This document shows, piece after piece, positions 17,825 to 54,684 of a stretch of 64,000 nt of DNA. Made by a program: the position numbers and the translations under genes. The stretch comes from Candidatus Poribacteria bacterium. Lineage in GTDB: Bacteria; Poribacteria; WGA-4E; WGA-3G. The DNA lies in NCBI GenBank assembly GCA_963663765.2, contig CAXXUA010000006.1:1-64000 (forward strand), given 5' to 3'. Positions within the stretch are counted from its first letter, which is position 1, and each line of letters starts with the position of its first letter. Under the pieces are notes generated by a model. The model ran no database searches, was not told where the DNA came from, and saw only the letters and a program-made list of their open reading frames with translations.

Positions 17825-19900
17825 ATGAAAAAGATATTTGTTCTAATATTCTTATTTTTATACGTAAGTCTTGCATACGCACAAGAAGATGCCTCTGTGT
17901 GGATGCCTGACCCAAACTTACGCCACCAAATCAGGGAGCGATTGAAACTGCCTGAAAACTTTCCTCTCACAAAAATAGAACTCAAAAGGCTCACTCATTT
18001 TGACGATAAGTATGGTAATATACGCGATATTACAGGCTTAGAACATGCAACCTATCTTGAACACCTTGACCTTGAAAGTTGCGAAATACTTGATTTGAAG
18101 CCTTTTGAGAAGTTAAGCACACTTGAACATCTTCGGGTTTTAAAATTGGATAGAAACGATCCAGAATTAACAGATATTACGCCGCTCTCATATCTAACTC
18201 AACTCACATATTTAGATTTAAATGGAAATGATGTATCGGATATAACGTCTCTTGCGAATCTAATTCAGCTACAATATCTTGATTTACGTAACAATCATAT
18301 ATCGGACATAATACCCCTTGCAAATCTAACTCAGCTCACATATTTAGATTTAGGTAGAAATGCTATATCGGATATAACGTCTCTTGCGAATCTAATTCAG
18401 CTACAATATCTTGATTTACGTAACAATCATATATCGGACATAATACCCCTTGCAAATCTAATACAGTTAGAGACATTAATTCTCACAAATAATATCCTTG
18501 TAGACTTTACGGCAGTTGGAAACCTACCACTTAAAACATTTGAACATGACTGGATTTGTGATGTACCCATGAAAGATGTTGCGAGTCGACTTCAAGAAAG
18601 GAATTTTCCTGCACATGTTCACGTGTGGAACATACGACTTGAAGAAGAATACGGATTAGAACATCCCAAAGTAGGATTGTTTTTTGGACCCTATTGGTAT
18701 AAATTAGATAGAATCATCGGAGCAGATATTGTACAATATAAGGAAAGCAGTGAAGAATTCGTTATGTCCCGTTATGAACAATTTAGGATAAAAAATCCTG
18801 AAGTGATTCATCTGATAGGTATGCTATATAGAGAGGCGTGGCACACACAATTTCCAGAAGATTCACCCTACTGGTTGAGAGGTAAAAATGGTGAAAGATT
18901 AAGAAGTGTTCCAGGTGAACCTACTAATTTGTCTTATTACATTGACTTTACGAAGCCTGAGACCATTGATTTTATTGTTCAACAAGCGGTAGCAGTTGCA
19001 AGATGTGGTTTATTTGATGGTATTGTCTTTGATAGGTGGACAGACTACCATGCAATTCTAAAAGATAGATCAGAGGACGGTCGTCCCCCAGTACACGGTG
19101 TGGAAGTAGAACAAAATGCGCGTGACGAAATCTTACGACGTATCCGTGCAGAGGTGCCCGAAGATTTTATTATTATCGGAAATGGAAATCGTGGAAAAAA
19201 CATGCGCACCGCGTGGGCATGTAATGGTTCCACAATGGAACTTGGACTTGATTATCCTGGCGGATACACCCATGCCGGTCTTTCCGAGATAGATGACGCA
19301 TTGTTTTGGATATCAGAAAACATGCGGGAACCGCGCGTGAATGCTGTACATTTTAATGCTATAGAAGATCAACCGTATGATAGTCCAGACAATTTGCAAA
19401 TGATGCGTTGTTGCACAACGCTTATTCTTACTATGTCTAACGCTTTTTTTAGTTTTCGAAAGGAATATAGTAGAGAATATCGTTGGTATGATTTTTGGGA
19501 CACGGATCTCGGTAAACCGATTGGAGAAAAAAGACAACGTTACGAGGATAAAGATGGGTTATTTATCCGCGAATTTACAAATGGGTGGGTCGTTTACAAC
19601 CGTAGTTACGCTTCACAAAAAGTCTTATTCTCAGAACCTGTTGCAAGTGTCACCAGCGGTATCCATGCATGGCAACACGCGATTCCTGATTTAGATGGTG
19701 ACATCTATCTCAAAATAGATGGAGAGGTATCAAACCCCGCAGATCTGAATGGTGATGGAGTTGTCAATATCTTGGATTTAGTGATTGTTGCTAACCGTTT
19801 TAACACAGCGAAACCTGACCTCAATGGTGATGGGGTTGTAAATATCTTGGATTTAGTGATTGTTGCGAAAGGAATACAGTCGGAAGATGCGACAGATTGA
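17825..19900 (+). CDS. Secreted LRR + putative glycoside hydrolase + dockerin, paralogue 3
   Basis: Same architecture; internal 132-bp (two-LRR) duplication; central domain close to paralogue 1. Confidence 0.8.
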   Translation: MKKIFVLIFLFLYVSLAYAQEDASVWMPDPNLRHQIRERLKLPENFPLTKIELKRLTHFDDKYGNIRDITGLEHATYLEHLDLESCEILDLKPFEKLSTLEHLRVLKLDRNDPELTDITPLSYLTQLTYLDLNGNDVSDITSLANLIQLQYLDLRNNHISDIIPLANLTQLTYLDLGRNAISDITSLANLIQLQYLDLRNNHISDIIPLANLIQLETLILTNNILVDFTAVGNLPLKTFEHDWICDVPMKDVASRLQERNFPAHVHVWNIRLEEEYGLEHPKVGLFFGPYWYKLDRIIGADIVQYKESSEEFVMSRYEQFRIKNPEVIHLIGMLYREAWHTQFPEDSPYWLRGKNGERLRSVPGEPTNLSYYIDFTKPETIDFIVQQAVAVARCGLFDGIVFDRWTDYHAILKDRSEDGRPPVHGVEVEQNARDEILRRIRAEVPEDFIIIGNGNRGKNMRTAWACNGSTMELGLDYPGGYTHAGLSEIDDALFWISENMREPRVNAVHFNAIEDQPYDSPDNLQMMRCCTTLILTMSNAFFSFRKEYSREYRWYDFWDTDLGKPIGEKRQRYEDKDGLFIREFTNGWVVYNRSYASQKVLFSEPVASVTSGIHAWQHAIPDLDGDIYLKIDGEVSNPADLNGDGVVNILDLVIVANRFNTAKPDLNGDGVVNILDLVIVAKGIQSEDATD

Positions 19901-20011: not shown

Positions 20012-20497
20012 GTGGAAAAATTGAAAACAGAAGGTGAATATAATCTCCGGCAAACACGGGGTGCCCATCGTGGATTTATCCATGCGCTACCGCCTTTGGA
20101 AGAACTATCTATTCAAGACTACGATAGAAACTCTATGTATCAGGTTGTTACCTATGCAATCATGGGTGAAGATGGTTACAATGTTTTCCTACACAGTGCG
20201 CTTTGGTCAATCCAATCGCTTCTCAAACGCACAGATGCTGTGAAGGGGTGTGTTGCTGTTTATATCCATGCTGAGAAACAGTATCAAGATGAGATTTATC
20301 AACGAACGGATCTGGTGGGTATGCCTCGTGAATGGATAATATTTTTTGAGGAACAGGTATCGATTCCGACAGATGGCAGGAGAATGCTCAAACGTTTAGA
20401 AATTGGATGGCATTCTGAGATCACTCAATATGACAAAGTGCTACTTTTAGATGCCGATTGTTTCTTTGCGGATGACGGAGAGCCTAAAGACTTATGA
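20012..20497 (+). pseudogene. Probable truncated GT-A glycosyltransferase-like protein
   Basis: YDKVLLLDADCFF (DxD) motif just before an abrupt stop next to the MITE array. Confidence 0.45.
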
Positions 20498-20500
20498 GCG

Positions 20501-21213
20501 GGGAACAAATAACACTACCCCATAGGCGTCAACTTAAGGAATTTTACCTCTTGTGGGAGGGGTTTTCAACCCCGATTTTATGTTCATTTCCACTCAAATC
20601 GGGGTTAAAAACCCCTCCCACAAGAGAATATGCCAACACTTTTTTCTTAAGTTGACGCCTATGGGGAACAAATAACACTACCCCATAGGTGTCAATTTAG
20701 GGATCTATTTCAAGGTTTTGTTCAGTTTAGTACAAACAACACCGTCATATTGATTGTACGGGCGGGTCCCTGTCCCTGACCATTGTTTCCTTGTTGTATA
20801 CATGGCGGGGCACAGAGACCCCGCACTACAATGTGTGGCGGGATTTGTCGCTTAAATTGACGCCTATGGGGGAACAAATAACACTACCCATAGGCGTCAA
20901 TTTAAGAAAAAAGAGTTAGTGTTTTTCTTGTGGGAGGGTTTTTCAACCTTGATTTGAGAGGAAAAGCGCATAAATTCGGGGTTGAAAACCCCTCCCACAA
21001 TACGTGAAAATCCTTAAATTGACGCCTATGGGGGAACAAATAACACTACCCATAGGCGTCAATTTAAGAAAAAAGAGTTAGTGTTTTTCTTGTGGGAGGG
21101 TTTTTCAACCTTGATTTGAGAGGAAAAGCGCATAAATTCGGGGTTGAAAACCCCTCCCACAAGAGGTAAAAATCCTTAAATTGACGCCTATGGGGGAACA
21201 AATAACACTACCC
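20501..21213. repeat. Array of five ~20-bp direct repeats separated by four type D MITEs
   Basis: (G)GGGAACAAATAACACTACC(C) x5; inserts 20521-20663, 20684-20868, 20889-21030, 21051-21192, each bounded by CATAGGYGTCAAYTTA TIRs. Confidence 0.9.
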
Positions 21214-21550
21214 ACTCCGCCCACCTTCTTGGGATCATAGTAGCATAGTTTGGGTTCTCGGGCTTTACCCGACCTACAAGAACATTAGTTTGTGTGTCAC
21301 CCTCTTGCGTTCAGGATTGTGTTTAAGTCGTTTTCTATAGACATTCCGCACTGCTGGTGCTTATGTGTAATGTTGTTAAATCGCGTCTGGGAGGTGTTTC
21401 TACAGAGGAGAGTCAAAACCACAAATTGAAATAATGGAAAAACAAAAATACCCTGAAATATTCTTGATCTGGTTTTCGTAGCAAACTGAATATGTTATAA
21501 TGCATGCACTATATTATTTAGTTTGTTCTGTTTGAGGGTCAGGAGTATAT

Positions 21551-23506
21551 TTGATGAAAAAGATAAGATATTGCACACTCATTTTTAGTTTGTTCTTATG
21601 CTGTGTTTTTGGACATGCAGCCTCTATTGAGATTGTTGATAATACTGTTATCGCTGATACGGATGTCTATACTGCTCATTTTCAGGATGGCACATTCACA
21701 TATTTGCATAATAAACTCACTGGTGAAACATACACACTGCCGTTAGAAGATGGACGTGTGGTAGGCACAAAGTATGAGTCTGGTGTTGCGTGGTTAGAGG
21801 AAGATTGGAAAATCGTTCGTGAGACAGATTTTGAGGTTGTTGATATTGTCAGAGTAAGTTCTGTAGAGGTACAGATTGTTAGTCAGGACGGTGAAAATCG
21901 TTTGACGAATATTATCAGAATTGATTTGGAGTCAGGCGATCTTGTTGTTGAGCAAGCGGCTGTTTCAGATAAAAGCGGGCTGGCAGAGGTGTGGTGGACG
22001 TTGAGTAATTTGGATATAACGGACATGGAGATTATTGTTCCATCAGATGGAGGTGTCTCTATTAAGGAATCAACAGATTTTAGTGGTAGTTTTCCGTATC
22101 CGAATACGTATTGGGAGGCACAACTGGCAATAGCACACTCATCTTTGGGTGGTTTCTTTCTTAGCAGCACCGATACACTGTTCAAATACAAAAAACTGAA
22201 CTATAAACGTGCACGCGAATGGGAAAAACATCAACATTCCTATTATCTTACCTTGACCTCTCAAAATCAAGCACCGTTCGAAAATCATGATTCTATCAAA
22301 TCTGTTGAATGGCGATTAAATGTCTATCGTGGGAATTGGCGTGTTCCAGCGCGTCAATATCGTGAATGGATGGAGGAATCGTTTGACCAACATATCACGA
22401 CACCGCCTGATTGGGTTGAGAATATAAATTTTGTTTTTCAAAGTTCTTTGAATCCGGATATACCGCTTCGTATGATTGAACTTGGGATCAATCCAGAAGA
22501 AACGTTGCTTGTCGTGGGTAATGGGTTTGTGCATCAAGATTATCCTGAGTATAACATAAGACCGGATTTCGCTAAGTTTTTGGAAGTTGCACATGCACAT
22601 GGGTTTAAGGTGATGATGAGTACTAACGCGCGTGGTGTTTTTGTGAAAGAGTTGTCTTTTGATTTTTTCAAACAGTATCAACTTCAGAATCCGTGGACAG
22701 GGACTTATTTAGGGTTTGGTTGGGACTCACCTAATCCGATAGATGGACATATCTATGTTAATCCTGCGAGTGCAGAATTCAGACGTTTTTTTATAGATAA
22801 AATGAAAACTGTCCATGATGCTGTGCCTTTTGATGCGATTTTTCTTGATGTCAATCACCTTGTTGAAAATGATAATAATGGGTTAATTGATGGTCTGAGC
22901 GCGGCACAAGGTGCAGTTATGCTTCAGAAAGAACTGAAAGAAGCAATTCCTAATATAGTGCTTGCTGGCGAGTTGTTTCACGAGGCGAATTTGCTGGAGA
23001 ATTTCGCACAACGCAAATTAGGTGTCGGTAAATGGAGACATCTTGACCCGCATCCGATCAGCACATTTATATTCGGATCATCAGTAAGGATATACGGTTT
23101 GGCAGAAAAGATTGAAGATAATGATATGGGAAGTATAGATCTATTTTATGAATCGTTGAACGCCTATAAAATGCGGGGATACTTGCCATTTGTGAATATA
23201 TGGAATATACGACAATTTGGAGAGGAATATGTTACGGTGAGAAAACTGGTTTCTGCTGTTGCTGAATGGCAGAAATCTAACCCTCAAATAAACCTTGAAA
23301 AGGATGAACTGTATCCAGTGCATTGGACAGATCTATTTCTTTCTGAGCCTGAATCCATCACTCCTTATGATCTTAATGGCGATGGTATAGTCAATATTCT
23401 CGATTTGGTGATTGTTGCGAATGCGTTTGGAGAACCTGAGCCTGATCTGAATGGTGATGGTGTTGTGAATATATTAGATTTGATTCTTGTAGCGAACAGT
23501 ATATGA
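21551..23506 (+). CDS. Secreted glycoside hydrolase-like (DUF6259-like) protein with dockerin
   Basis: Signal peptide; YVNPAS..F...FDAIFLD barrel motif; two dockerin repeats. Confidence 0.7.
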   Translation: MMKKIRYCTLIFSLFLCCVFGHAASIEIVDNTVIADTDVYTAHFQDGTFTYLHNKLTGETYTLPLEDGRVVGTKYESGVAWLEEDWKIVRETDFEVVDIVRVSSVEVQIVSQDGENRLTNIIRIDLESGDLVVEQAAVSDKSGLAEVWWTLSNLDITDMEIIVPSDGGVSIKESTDFSGSFPYPNTYWEAQLAIAHSSLGGFFLSSTDTLFKYKKLNYKRAREWEKHQHSYYLTLTSQNQAPFENHDSIKSVEWRLNVYRGNWRVPARQYREWMEESFDQHITTPPDWVENINFVFQSSLNPDIPLRMIELGINPEETLLVVGNGFVHQDYPEYNIRPDFAKFLEVAHAHGFKVMMSTNARGVFVKELSFDFFKQYQLQNPWTGTYLGFGWDSPNPIDGHIYVNPASAEFRRFFIDKMKTVHDAVPFDAIFLDVNHLVENDNNGLIDGLSAAQGAVMLQKELKEAIPNIVLAGELFHEANLLENFAQRKLGVGKWRHLDPHPISTFIFGSSVRIYGLAEKIEDNDMGSIDLFYESLNAYKMRGYLPFVNIWNIRQFGEEYVTVRKLVSAVAEWQKSNPQINLEKDELYPVHWTDLFLSEPESITPYDLNGDGIVNILDLVIVANAFGEPEPDLNGDGVVNILDLILVANSI

Positions 23507-36627: not shown

Positions 36628-36774
36628 TGCGGGTTATCTGAACCAGGATTTTCAGGATTAGTAGATTTCCAGGATTACGCTATCCAGTTGCAGGCGGGGA
36701 ATGCATAAATGCGAATGCGCGTATGGCATTCGCCATGATTCATACCGTTGATTTGGTGCTTTGTAAGCGCCCCC

Positions 36775-36917
36775 CATAGGCGTCAATTTAAGAAAATATT
36801 GTTGTCATTTTTCTTGTGGGAGGGGTTTTCAACCCCGATTTGAGCGGAAATGCACTAAAAAATCGGGGTTGAAAACCCCTCCCACAAAAGGTGAAAATCC
36901 TTAAATTGACGCCTATG
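36775..36917. mobile_element. Type D MITE with 19-bp TSD, inserted in a REP
   Basis: Flanks 36756-36774 and 36918-36936 match at 18/19; carries a TGTGGGAGGGG REP doublet. Confidence 0.88.
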
Positions 36918-37233
36918 GTGCTTTGTAAGCGCGCCCTCTTGTCTGACCCAGGATTTTCAGGATTACCAGATTTTCAGGATTAGAGTCTGGTGCATCTTGC
37001 CTCCATTCACCAGATAACATCAATGTGTATCAAAAATCCTTGATAGCATAATCCTGATAATCCACTAATCCCGGGGAATGCTATATAGCATTCATACCGT
37101 TGATTTCTTGATTTGAAAATCCTGGTTCAGACACTCCGTGTAATCTGCGATTCAGAACACAAATCCGCCTCACCTGCTATTCCGAACACAAACCAGCGTC
37201 CTCCGTGTAATCCTTGTTTCCGTTCACACCATA

Positions 37234-53300: not shown

Positions 53301-53428
53301 GTATGTAATATTTGGACATATTATATCATAAACGAAAACATGTCAATTGTTTTGTCTCACTTGTAGGCGTGCTTGTAAGCGCGCCCCTCTTGTGTGAGGT
53401 TTTTCTCTTGTGGGAGGGGTTTCAACCC

Positions 53429-54170
53429 CATAGGTGTCAACTTAAGAAAAAGTCAAGTGCTAAATACCCCATCCCGGTAGGCGTGCTTGTAAGTGCGCCG
53501 ATAAACACAGGATTGGCAACGGCGCGCTTACAAAGCACGCCTGCAGGTGAGTGCAGTTGGGGGGCGCGCTTACAAAGCACGCCTGCAGGTGAGTGCAGTT
53601 GGGGGGCGCGCTTACAAAGCACTCCTGCGGATGAGTGCAGTTGGGGGGCGCGCTTACAAAGCGCGCCAGCAGGTGAGTGCGGGGCGCGCTTACAAAGCAC
53701 GCCTGCATTTTTTGGGAGTATGGAGCGCGCTTACAAAGCACGCCTGCAGGTGAGTGCAGTTGGGGGGCGCGCTTACAAAGCACGCCTGCGGATGAGTGCA
53801 GTTGGGGGGCGCGCTTACAAAGCACGCCTGCATTTTTTGGGAGTATGGAGCGCGCTTACAAAGCACGCCTGCAGGTGAGTGCAGTTGGGGGGCGCGCTTA
53901 CAAAGCACGCCTGCATTTTTTGGGAGTATGGAGCGCGCTTACAAAGCGCGCCTGCAGTGGGTATGCCAGCAGGTGAGTGCGGGGCGCGCTTACAAAGCAC
54001 GCCTGCATTTTTTGGGAGTATGGAGCGCGCTTACAAAGCGCACCTGCAGTGGGGTATGCCAGCAGGTAAGTGCGGGGCGCGCTTACAAAGCACGTCTACC
54101 TTGAGTGAGAAAATCGGGATTTCAAGGTTTCCCTCCTACAATAATATGAATCGCTAAGTTGACACCTATG
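53429..54170. mobile_element. Expanded type D MITE holding 14 tandem REP copies plus one inverted copy
   Basis: TIR cataggtgtcaactta/taagttgacacctatg; ~18-19-bp TSD tgggaggggttt(t)caaccc; GCGCGCTTACAAAGCACGCCTGC units 53521-54100. Confidence 0.85.
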
Positions 54171-54684
54171 TGGGAGGGGTTTTCAACCCCGACTGTGCCC
54201 CTCTTGCAGGCGTGCTTTGTAAGCGCGCCCCTTTTGTGGTGCGAATTGTCTGAACCAGGATTCACAGGATTTACGGATTTTCAGGATTTTTCTCATCAAG
54301 GTTTTTTGCTGTGCGTTTATGCTTACTTTTGGATAGGGTCAGACTGCACCAAACTCAAAATCCTGGAAATCTGCTAATCCCGGGGAATGCCATTGGGCGA
54401 ATGCGCGTATGGCATTCGCCATGATTCATACCCGGGGAATGCTTTTTAGCATTTATACCCGGGGAATGCCTAAAGAAGCATGCGCGTGTGGCATGCTCCA
54501 TGATTCATACCGTTGATTTCTTGATTTCTTGATTTGAAAATCCTGGTTCAGACAAAACAACCCCAATGTAAACCAAAAATTCATACCATCGTTAGACATA
54601 ATGTTTTACAAAGCATGCTGAGTAAATAAACATATCAAATAAAAAATTTTGAACACAAACAAAAGTCATAAGGAGACTAAACGA

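Follow-up and report, generated by a model that had tools for sequence, protein, structure and literature searches.

Introduction

Insertion sequences (IS) of the IS4 family transpose by cut-and-paste, and IS231 elements are known to have non-autonomous, MITE-like derivatives. In the 2008 definition of the family, Table 1 gives target-site duplications (TSDs) of 7-13 bp, about one helical turn, and assigns the IS231 subgroup the end signature CAT-------AA--TAA (PMC2266710). In this subgroup, the direct repeats are 10-12 bp long and many transposase pairs exceed 50% identity, and for IS231A a TSD of 11 bp at the target GGGNNNNNCCC is tabulated elsewhere (PMC2577343, Table 1). Longer duplications have been described in other elements. 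IS1634 and IS1549 are cited as IS4-related DDE elements with long direct repeats of variable length (PMC2266710), and the subgroups of the IS1202 family are described as having direct repeats of 27-28, 15-17 and 5-6 bp, steps that were ascribed to subgroup-specific indels in the transposase (bioRxiv 10.1101/2022.12.17.520857). Among MITEs, Nezha of Anabaena/Nostoc is reported with a 10-bp direct repeat, CATTATCTAC (PMC6042816). In the literature consulted, we found no TSD of 19-20 bp in the IS4 family and no MITEs of Poribacteria; earlier cataloguing is possible.

Here, we have analyzed a locus of a Poribacteria genome at which short inserts alternate with copies of a repeat of about 20 bp. 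Very probably, non-autonomous MITEs of an IS4-family clade distantly related to IS231 have piled up at this locus, and the landing site was remade at each insertion because about 20 bases of target are copied every time. A previous reading of the same DNA from its sequence alone had described the locus as a CRISPR-like array built by repeated MITE insertion, a view of which some parts are retained below and others are not.

Organization of the array

The window, i.e., the whole stretch of 64,000 nucleotides that was analyzed (contig C6:1-64000), belongs to a 6.35-Mb assembly of 15 contigs that is 97.8% complete. The array lies at 20500-21213 in the order R-M1-R-M2-R-M3-R-M4-R, where R stands for GGGGAACAAATAACACTACCC or for one of its 20-bp registers, and M1 to M4 are bounded by inverted CATAGGYGTCAAYTTAAG ends (Table 1). 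Neither the repeats nor the TIRs are a matter of chance, since GGGAACAAATAACACTACC has five matches in the window, all of them within the array (starts at 20501, 20664, 20870, 21032 and 21194; 0.02 expected from window shuffles), and the TIR CATAGGYGTCAAYTTA has 12 matches, which form six inward-facing pairs (0.14 expected). The five repeat copies and four TIR-bounded inserts of the sequence-only reading are thus upheld both by their coordinates and by the shuffles.

Table 1. Features of the array and of the two solo MITE copies, numbered from the first letter of the window
Feature	Positions	Strand	Remarks
Target copy 1 (GGGGAACAAATAACACTACCC)	20500..20520	+	right after the stop of ORF 20012-20497
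MITE insert 1 (M1), 143 bp	20521..20663	-	inverted relative to inserts 3 and 4; internal hairpin with 31-nt arms
Target copy 2, 20 bp	20664..20683	+	register 2-21 of the original site
MITE insert 2 (M2), 185 bp	20684..20868	+	175-187 bp subfamily with a differing interior
Target copy 3, 20 bp	20869..20888	+	register 1-20
MITE insert 3 (M3), 142 bp	20889..21030	+	
Target copy 4, 20 bp	21031..21050	+	
MITE insert 4 (M4), 142 bp	21051..21192	+	0.98 identity to insert 3, same orientation
Target copy 5	21193..21213	+	followed by the unique right flank
Solo MITE 36775-36917 with TSDs	36756..36936	+	19-bp TSD GTGCTTTGTAAGCGC(C/G)CCC on each side
MITE variant 53429-54170 (742 bp) with TSDs	53410..54190	+	minisatellite cargo; flanking duplication of about 19-20 bp, TGGGAGGGGTTT(T)CAACCC

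The two solo copies have duplications of their own, as had been noted before: that of the copy at 36775 is 19 bp long with one mismatch, and that of the copy at 53429 is 18-20 bp long with a one-base indel and corresponds to one hairpin arm of a different repeat. The minisatellite carried by the latter copy consists of units of approximately 60-70 bp that contain GCGCGCTTACAAAGCACGCCTGC, and similar cargo-bearing MITE copies of 640-1150 bp are found elsewhere in the genome.

The upstream neighbour of the array, ORF 20012-20497, has no Pfam family, the downstream neighbour, ORF 21551-23506, has a weak dockerin match, and the next ORF further upstream encodes an LRR/dockerin protein. Leucine-rich repeats, a GHL15 domain and dockerin domains occur in the large ORFs on both sides of the array (17825-19900 and 21551-23506).

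The MITE family and its target-site duplications

Genome-wide, 489 TIR matches were found, from which 189 adjacent inward-facing pairs could be assembled, 176 of them spanning no more than 2 kb. Approximately 125 of these 176 elements measure 140-144 bp and the rest are length variants; being small, present in many copies and devoid of a transposase ORF, they are MITEs. A flanking direct duplication (score of at least 10) was detected at 123 of the 176 elements, with lengths of 18 (1 element), 19 (66), 20 (54) and 21 bp (2). For the other 53, which have no clear TSD, the duplication could have been lost by decay or by recombination between copies, or the rule of pairing adjacent TIRs could have joined the ends of different elements. 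The length of the TSD follows the form of the TIR. Where the ends read CGTCAAT, 35 duplications measure 19 bp and 16 measure 20 bp; next to TGTCAAC ends, the respective counts are 13 and 30. This suggests that there are two MITE subfamilies and that the enzymes mobilizing them differ slightly.

The repeat load of this genome is very high in general. It comprises 366 merged intervals of at least 700 bp that recur at 85% identity or more, including several IS-sized families with 10-22 copies, and one contig (C12) is made up of a sequence of about 15.96 kb that is present twice.

Target preference and empty sites

The genome contains 91 unique TSD sequences, 88 of which (50 of 19 bp and 38 of 20 bp) were used to tabulate the target ends. 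In the 19-mers, G occupies the first three positions at 90, 78 and 76%, and C the last three at 74, 80 and 90%, while the 20-mers follow the pattern GGT...ACC; the G-rich 5' and C-rich 3' ends that had been remarked on at three targets of the window therefore hold across the genome. Candidate sites are limited in number (916 for GGG-N13-CCC and 3279 for GG[GT]-N14-[AC]CC), so that second hits on one and the same site are to be expected.

Since many targets sit inside other repeats, empty sites could be sought within the genome itself. For this purpose, flank, one TSD copy and flank were rebuilt for 90 sites free of an adjoining MITE end, and 21 of these were matched elsewhere without gaps at 95% identity or more (15 at 98% or more and 6 at 100%); the TIR is absent from the best 14 of the 21 matches. 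Because the target is in many cases a repeat, not every insertion counts as independent, and some filled sites may have been copied as part of a larger repeat.

Among representatives of other species, no orthologous empty site was found, the array flanks matching no relative at the DNA level and ORF 20012-20497 having no match in any of 39 other genomes of the genus. A closer comparison is offered by a related strain with 7 differences over 268 bases of the upstream gene, which is represented by one contig each in the public runs X2 and X4. Both contigs join 20467 to 21193, although this joint is marked 'between: not known', and the stretch of 30 letters that precedes 21193 in X4 is a diverged copy of the end of this gene (23 of 30 identical) and not a MITE end. 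In these limited letters, i.e., the two joints and the single loose end of 30 letters in X4, the related strain has a single repeat and no insert at the locus, with copy 5 lying right next to where the upstream gene ends. This corresponds to the empty allele that the sequence-only reading had proposed to look for across strains. With the duplications at 123 of 176 elements, the paralogous empty sites with a single copy and these contigs, the array repeat is a true target-site duplication, as had been claimed.

The autonomous partner and its transposase

A scan of species genomes for the TIR yielded matches in records titled Candidatus Poribacteria and in several cyanobacteria. One of the former, L067 (OZ244616.1), carries an IS of 1.45 kb with TIRs of the MITE type, an ORF of 438 aa and the TSD GGTAGAGCGAAGCGAAACC. 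This ORF matches the IS4-family model NF033592 (E 4.5e-62) and DDE_Tnp_1 (1e-21), and the transposases of partner ISs from other genomes score 201-210 bits against NF033592 (cut-off 115) and 78-85 bits against PF01609 (cut-off 23). With the IS1634-type model NF033559 they reach only 35.9-43.8 bits (cut-off 100), and the kinship with IS1634/IS1549 that had been entertained on account of the long duplications was abandoned.

The IS4 family is characterized by the spacing D(60-110)D(100-150)E and the motif Y(2)R(3)E(6)K. In an alignment of the relatives with IS231C, D119, D191 and E324 are invariant with spacings of 71 and 132, and R320, E324 and K331 are invariant in all eight aligned transposases; the position of the Tyr is occupied by Y in four of the eight, including IS231C, and by V, I, T or A in the other four (V in L067), and this residue is not conserved in the clade.

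The transposase family is widespread in the genus, where 24 of 39 other genomes encode it and one has as many as 43 copies, and it has at least 1896 members in a large collection. At 19 of the 30 genus loci that were fetched, paired TIRs span 1446-1487 bp, and 18 of the 19 are flanked by a TSD of 17-20 bp with 0-2 mismatches. A relative on a Chloroflexota plasmid (34% identity) has a perfect 20-bp TSD, GGGTGCTAAAACCAGTGCCC, of the form GGG-N14-CCC, and when IS231C on a Bacillus thuringiensis plasmid was used as a control, the TSD script returned 11 bp. In a transposase tree, the copies with TSDs of 17, 18 and 19 bp each group apart (the rows for L067, L122 and L124 contain a wrong or broken ORF), and one identical transposase protein is associated with TSDs of both 19 and 20 bp. 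The autonomous IS with these TIRs was therefore found, as had been recommended, in other genomes than the present one. As judged from its sequence, the mover of the MITEs is an IS4-family DDE transposase that is a distant relative of IS231, and the earlier idea of a non-Cas transposase that regenerates its target at insertion agrees with a partner having equal ends and an equal TSD.

In this genome, the cognate transposase was found neither by tblastn (best E 0.43) nor by a family search (0 matches); in an assembly that is 97.8% complete in 15 contigs, a copy could lie in the unassembled part. Nor is it encoded within any of the 17 TIR pairs of 600-8000 bp, and relaxing the TIR search to five mismatches gave no IS-sized pair that encloses a transposase. 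A TIR-bounded element of 1807 bp (C4:1180654-1182460), which lies inside a three-element array, was considered as an autonomous copy and rejected, being a MITE split by an unrelated Tn5-like IS. This IS4-family intruder (NF033590, E 5e-129; Dimer_Tnp_Tn5) has its own ends, CTTxCTTTTACCCATAAG, and an 8-bp TSD, CTTGTGGG.

Relationship to known elements

The closest named relatives of the L067-type protein in tblastn searches are IS231C and IS231S (24-26% identity over 77-78% of the query, E 1e-21 to 1e-24), while IS421, a member of the IS4 subgroup, covers half of the query with an E value of 1e-9. The MITE TIR CATAGGCGTCAATTTAAG agrees with the IS231 signature at positions 1-3, 11-12 and 15-17, and this signature is common to the ends of IS231C (CATGCCCATCAACTTAAG) and of the MITE (CATAGGTGTCAACTTAAG). 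Furthermore, both groups encode a DDE transposase in a single ORF and favour targets with GGG...CCC ends. They differ in TSD length (10-12 bp in IS231 and 17-20 bp in the Poribacteria clade), in their hosts (Bacillus as opposed to Poribacteria and Chloroflexota) and in a stretch of 18 residues between the second D and the E that is inserted in IS231C and absent from the Poribacteria clade, and an identity of only 24-26% falls short of the close relationship by which the subgroup is delimited. The TSD also lies beyond the range tabulated for the IS4 family as a whole, as 120 of the 123 MITE duplications measure 19-20 bp and those of the autonomous copies 17-20 bp. Thus, the clade is an IS231-related member of the IS4 family with an unusual TSD of 17-20 bp. 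It appears to have kept the IS231 end signature and half-site preference while cutting about one helical turn further apart.

Among the other elements introduced above, the IS1202 family provides a precedent, as far as its description goes, for one family whose TSD lengths step by about one helical turn and include very long ones; it is treated there as a family separate from IS4, and one of its subgroups targets Xer sites, for which the present clade offers no counterpart. IS1634/IS1549, as cited, differ from the present clade in having repeats of variable length instead of a tight TSD of 19-20 bp. Nezha resembles the present MITEs as a described element of 130-170 bp with a stable hairpin, from a phylum in which the Poribacteria TIR also occurs, and was rejected as the identity of the MITE because of its reported direct repeat of 10 bp.

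Cyanobacteria contain MITEs of 183-200 bp with a near-identical end, CAT(T/A)GGTGTCAACTTAAG, but with TSDs of 9-10 bp, often GGCNNNGCC. The loci inspected were 20 from one Oscillatoriales genome (L147-L166) and L024, L072, L074, L079 and L095, and TSDs of 9-10 bp were present at 6 of 8 in one set and 12 of 20 in another. In four cyanobacterial genomes with such MITEs, no transposase of the Poribacteria type was found at E <=1e-10. TIR-bounded derivatives of 843 bp in a Tychonema genome carry an IS4_1-type remnant that has no tblastn similarity to L067 at E <=1e-3.

Within the present genome, a repeat with the TIR-like end TAGGTGTCAATATAA was tried as a partner and discarded, as it has one such end only, followed by tandem 61-bp units (two copies inspected). 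The string TAGGTGTCAATATAA has 77 matches at no more than one mismatch, some of which are ordinary MITE ends. This single-ended repeat (C5:1149263-1149750 and up to about 70 further sites, none of them in the window) carries its end, (C)AT(T/A)AGGTGTCAATATAA(A/G), ahead of the 61-bp units. In many cases it follows a CGGGCACAGAGACC context, and MITEs favour this context as a target, too.

Proposed mechanism and growth of arrays

In the mechanism that we propose, a DDE transposase would join both ends of the element to phosphates of the target with a stagger of 19-20 bp, corresponding to about two turns of the helix, preferably at GGG-N13-CCC or GGT-N14-ACC, and gap repair would then duplicate the whole site, leaving one intact target on either side of each new element. 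The chemistry of the staggered cut is proposed by homology to IS4/Tn5-type DDE enzymes, and the stagger is deduced from the duplications because transposition itself was not observed. At the present locus, the 21-bp site GGGGAACAAATAACACTACCC would have received at least three independent hits, i.e., the inverted insert 1, insert 2 from the other subfamily and insert 3, and insert 4 would most likely have been added when the flanking direct repeats of 20 bp underwent unequal exchange or slipped during replication. Since the cognate transposase was not found in this genome, the approximately 176 copies would be orphans that were mobilized earlier or in trans.

Several features of the array bear on this scheme. 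Insert 1 lies opposite to inserts 3 and 4 (111-nt arms, 86-89% complementary), the interior of insert 2 is only 0.54-0.57 identical to its neighbours, and the 21-bp site was cut in two registers, 2-21 at insert 1 and 1-20 at inserts 3 and 4. In contrast, insert 3 and one target copy form a 162-bp unit that is repeated at 98% identity with insert 4. The window array therefore contains at least three independent insertions (M1, M2 and M3), and insert 4 is probably a duplicate of the 162-bp unit.

Of the 19 arrays in the genome, 13 consist of two elements, three of three and three of four; together, they account for 47 of the 176 elements and for 28 adjacent pairs. For 22 of these pairs, both members are no longer than 200 bp and could be scored, the six pairs with a longer element being left out. 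The two members share their orientation in 20 of the 22 and are opposed in two, which gives a binomial tail of 6e-5, although pairs from the same array are not independent, a reservation that also applies to the identities. Fifteen of the 20 co-oriented pairs have an identity of 0.98 or more, as compared with a mean of 0.882 and a 95th percentile of 0.965 for 400 random pairs. The heterogeneous pairs number seven of 22, two being of opposite orientation and five having an identity of 0.90 or less. Since separate loci of a single target family have received insertions in both orientations, orientation is not dictated by the target. The arrays are most simply read as having grown, for the most part, by duplication of the [MITE + TSD] unit, presumably through unequal exchange or slippage between the 19-20 bp repeats, with a minority of the scored pairs, at least seven of 22, being true second hits. 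The proposal that repeated insertion builds such arrays is thus supported for at least three inserts of the window array and is not supported for most of the other arrays, in which co-oriented, near-identical neighbours prevail.

As an alternative to unit duplication, the near-identical, co-oriented neighbours could have been made by the transposase itself instead of host recombination, for example, when an element excised from one sister chromosome lands in the regenerated 20-bp target next to its sister copy; this reading appears unlikely. If it were true, the arrays would be strain-variable records of transposition bursts, with zero as opposed to four inserts at this locus, and the enzyme would be of the IS4 type with its stagger moved by one helical turn and its recognition of the ends and of the G...C half-sites kept. 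Another reading, in which arrays come wholly from repeated transposition into the regenerated target and near-identical neighbours are local re-insertions of an excised or copied neighbour, seems to us quite unlikely. It would account for the three or more independent insertions in the window and the seven heterogeneous pairs, and double hits are expected with so few GGG-N13-CCC sites; it is opposed by the shared orientation and identity of most pairs, by the use of both orientations within one target family, and by the fact that cut-and-paste alone does not place a copy beside its donor in a fixed orientation.

The reverse extreme, i.e., that the whole array arose by tandem duplication of one MITE + repeat unit without repeated insertion, is very unlikely. 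The 162-bp repetition of inserts 3 and 4 speaks for it and the majority of the other arrays show such a pattern, but at this locus the inverted position of insert 1 and the differing interior of insert 2, a member of the other, 185-bp subfamily, refute it, and the repeat copies occur in both registers of the site. That the array is not a simple tandem duplication had already been recognized from the sequence. An assembly artefact, by collapse or expansion of repeats, would be conceivable in a genome so extremely rich in repeated intervals and is likewise given very little credence, because the four inserts differ from each other, 18 further arrays have the same architecture, and three junctions of the array (20438-20526, 20851-20951 and 21198-21286) appear letter for letter in short-read contigs that were assembled independently from public runs, among which the source sample of the assembly may be included.

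A CRISPR-like array, or a cassette array made by a Cas1/casposase or a site-specific recombinase with the 20-mer as attachment core, shares with this locus the formal likeness of a repeat that alternates with inserts and is duplicated on integration (in the case of Cas1-Cas2 by staggered nicks at both repeat ends), but is extremely unlikely, given that the 91 unique flanking repeats vary by locus and are therefore targets rather than a fixed core, that the inserts of 142-185 bp are copies of a genome-wide MITE family and not unique spacers, that the partner encodes an IS4-family DDE transposase, that Pfam revealed no cas gene among the three ORFs flanking the array, and that an Rfam scan of the array gave no family at the gathering score but only sub-threshold, generic hairpin look-alikes. 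Together with this analogy, the suggestion of an ordered record of insertions was dropped, as neither a leader nor polarity, a growing end or any indication of event order was found in the array.

Implications

The array is a transposon phenomenon that is unconnected to CRISPR. Its movers form a clade that has IS231-like ends and GGG/CCC half-sites and yet would cut about two helical turns apart, compared with the TSD of one turn in the tabulated 2008 definition of the IS4 family (PMC2266710). The two groups offer a natural pair, with TSDs of 11 bp and 19-20 bp, for studying how a DDE transpososome sets its stagger, in parallel with the steps described for the direct repeats of the IS1202 family. 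In addition, a 2024 survey of prokaryotic MITEs gives TSDs of 2-10 bp (PMC11602168), and surveys that are limited to such short duplications would probably miss MITEs of the present kind, of which this sponge-associated genome has approximately 176 copies. The long regenerated target also explains a class of tandem MITE loci that vary between strains and could serve as strain markers.
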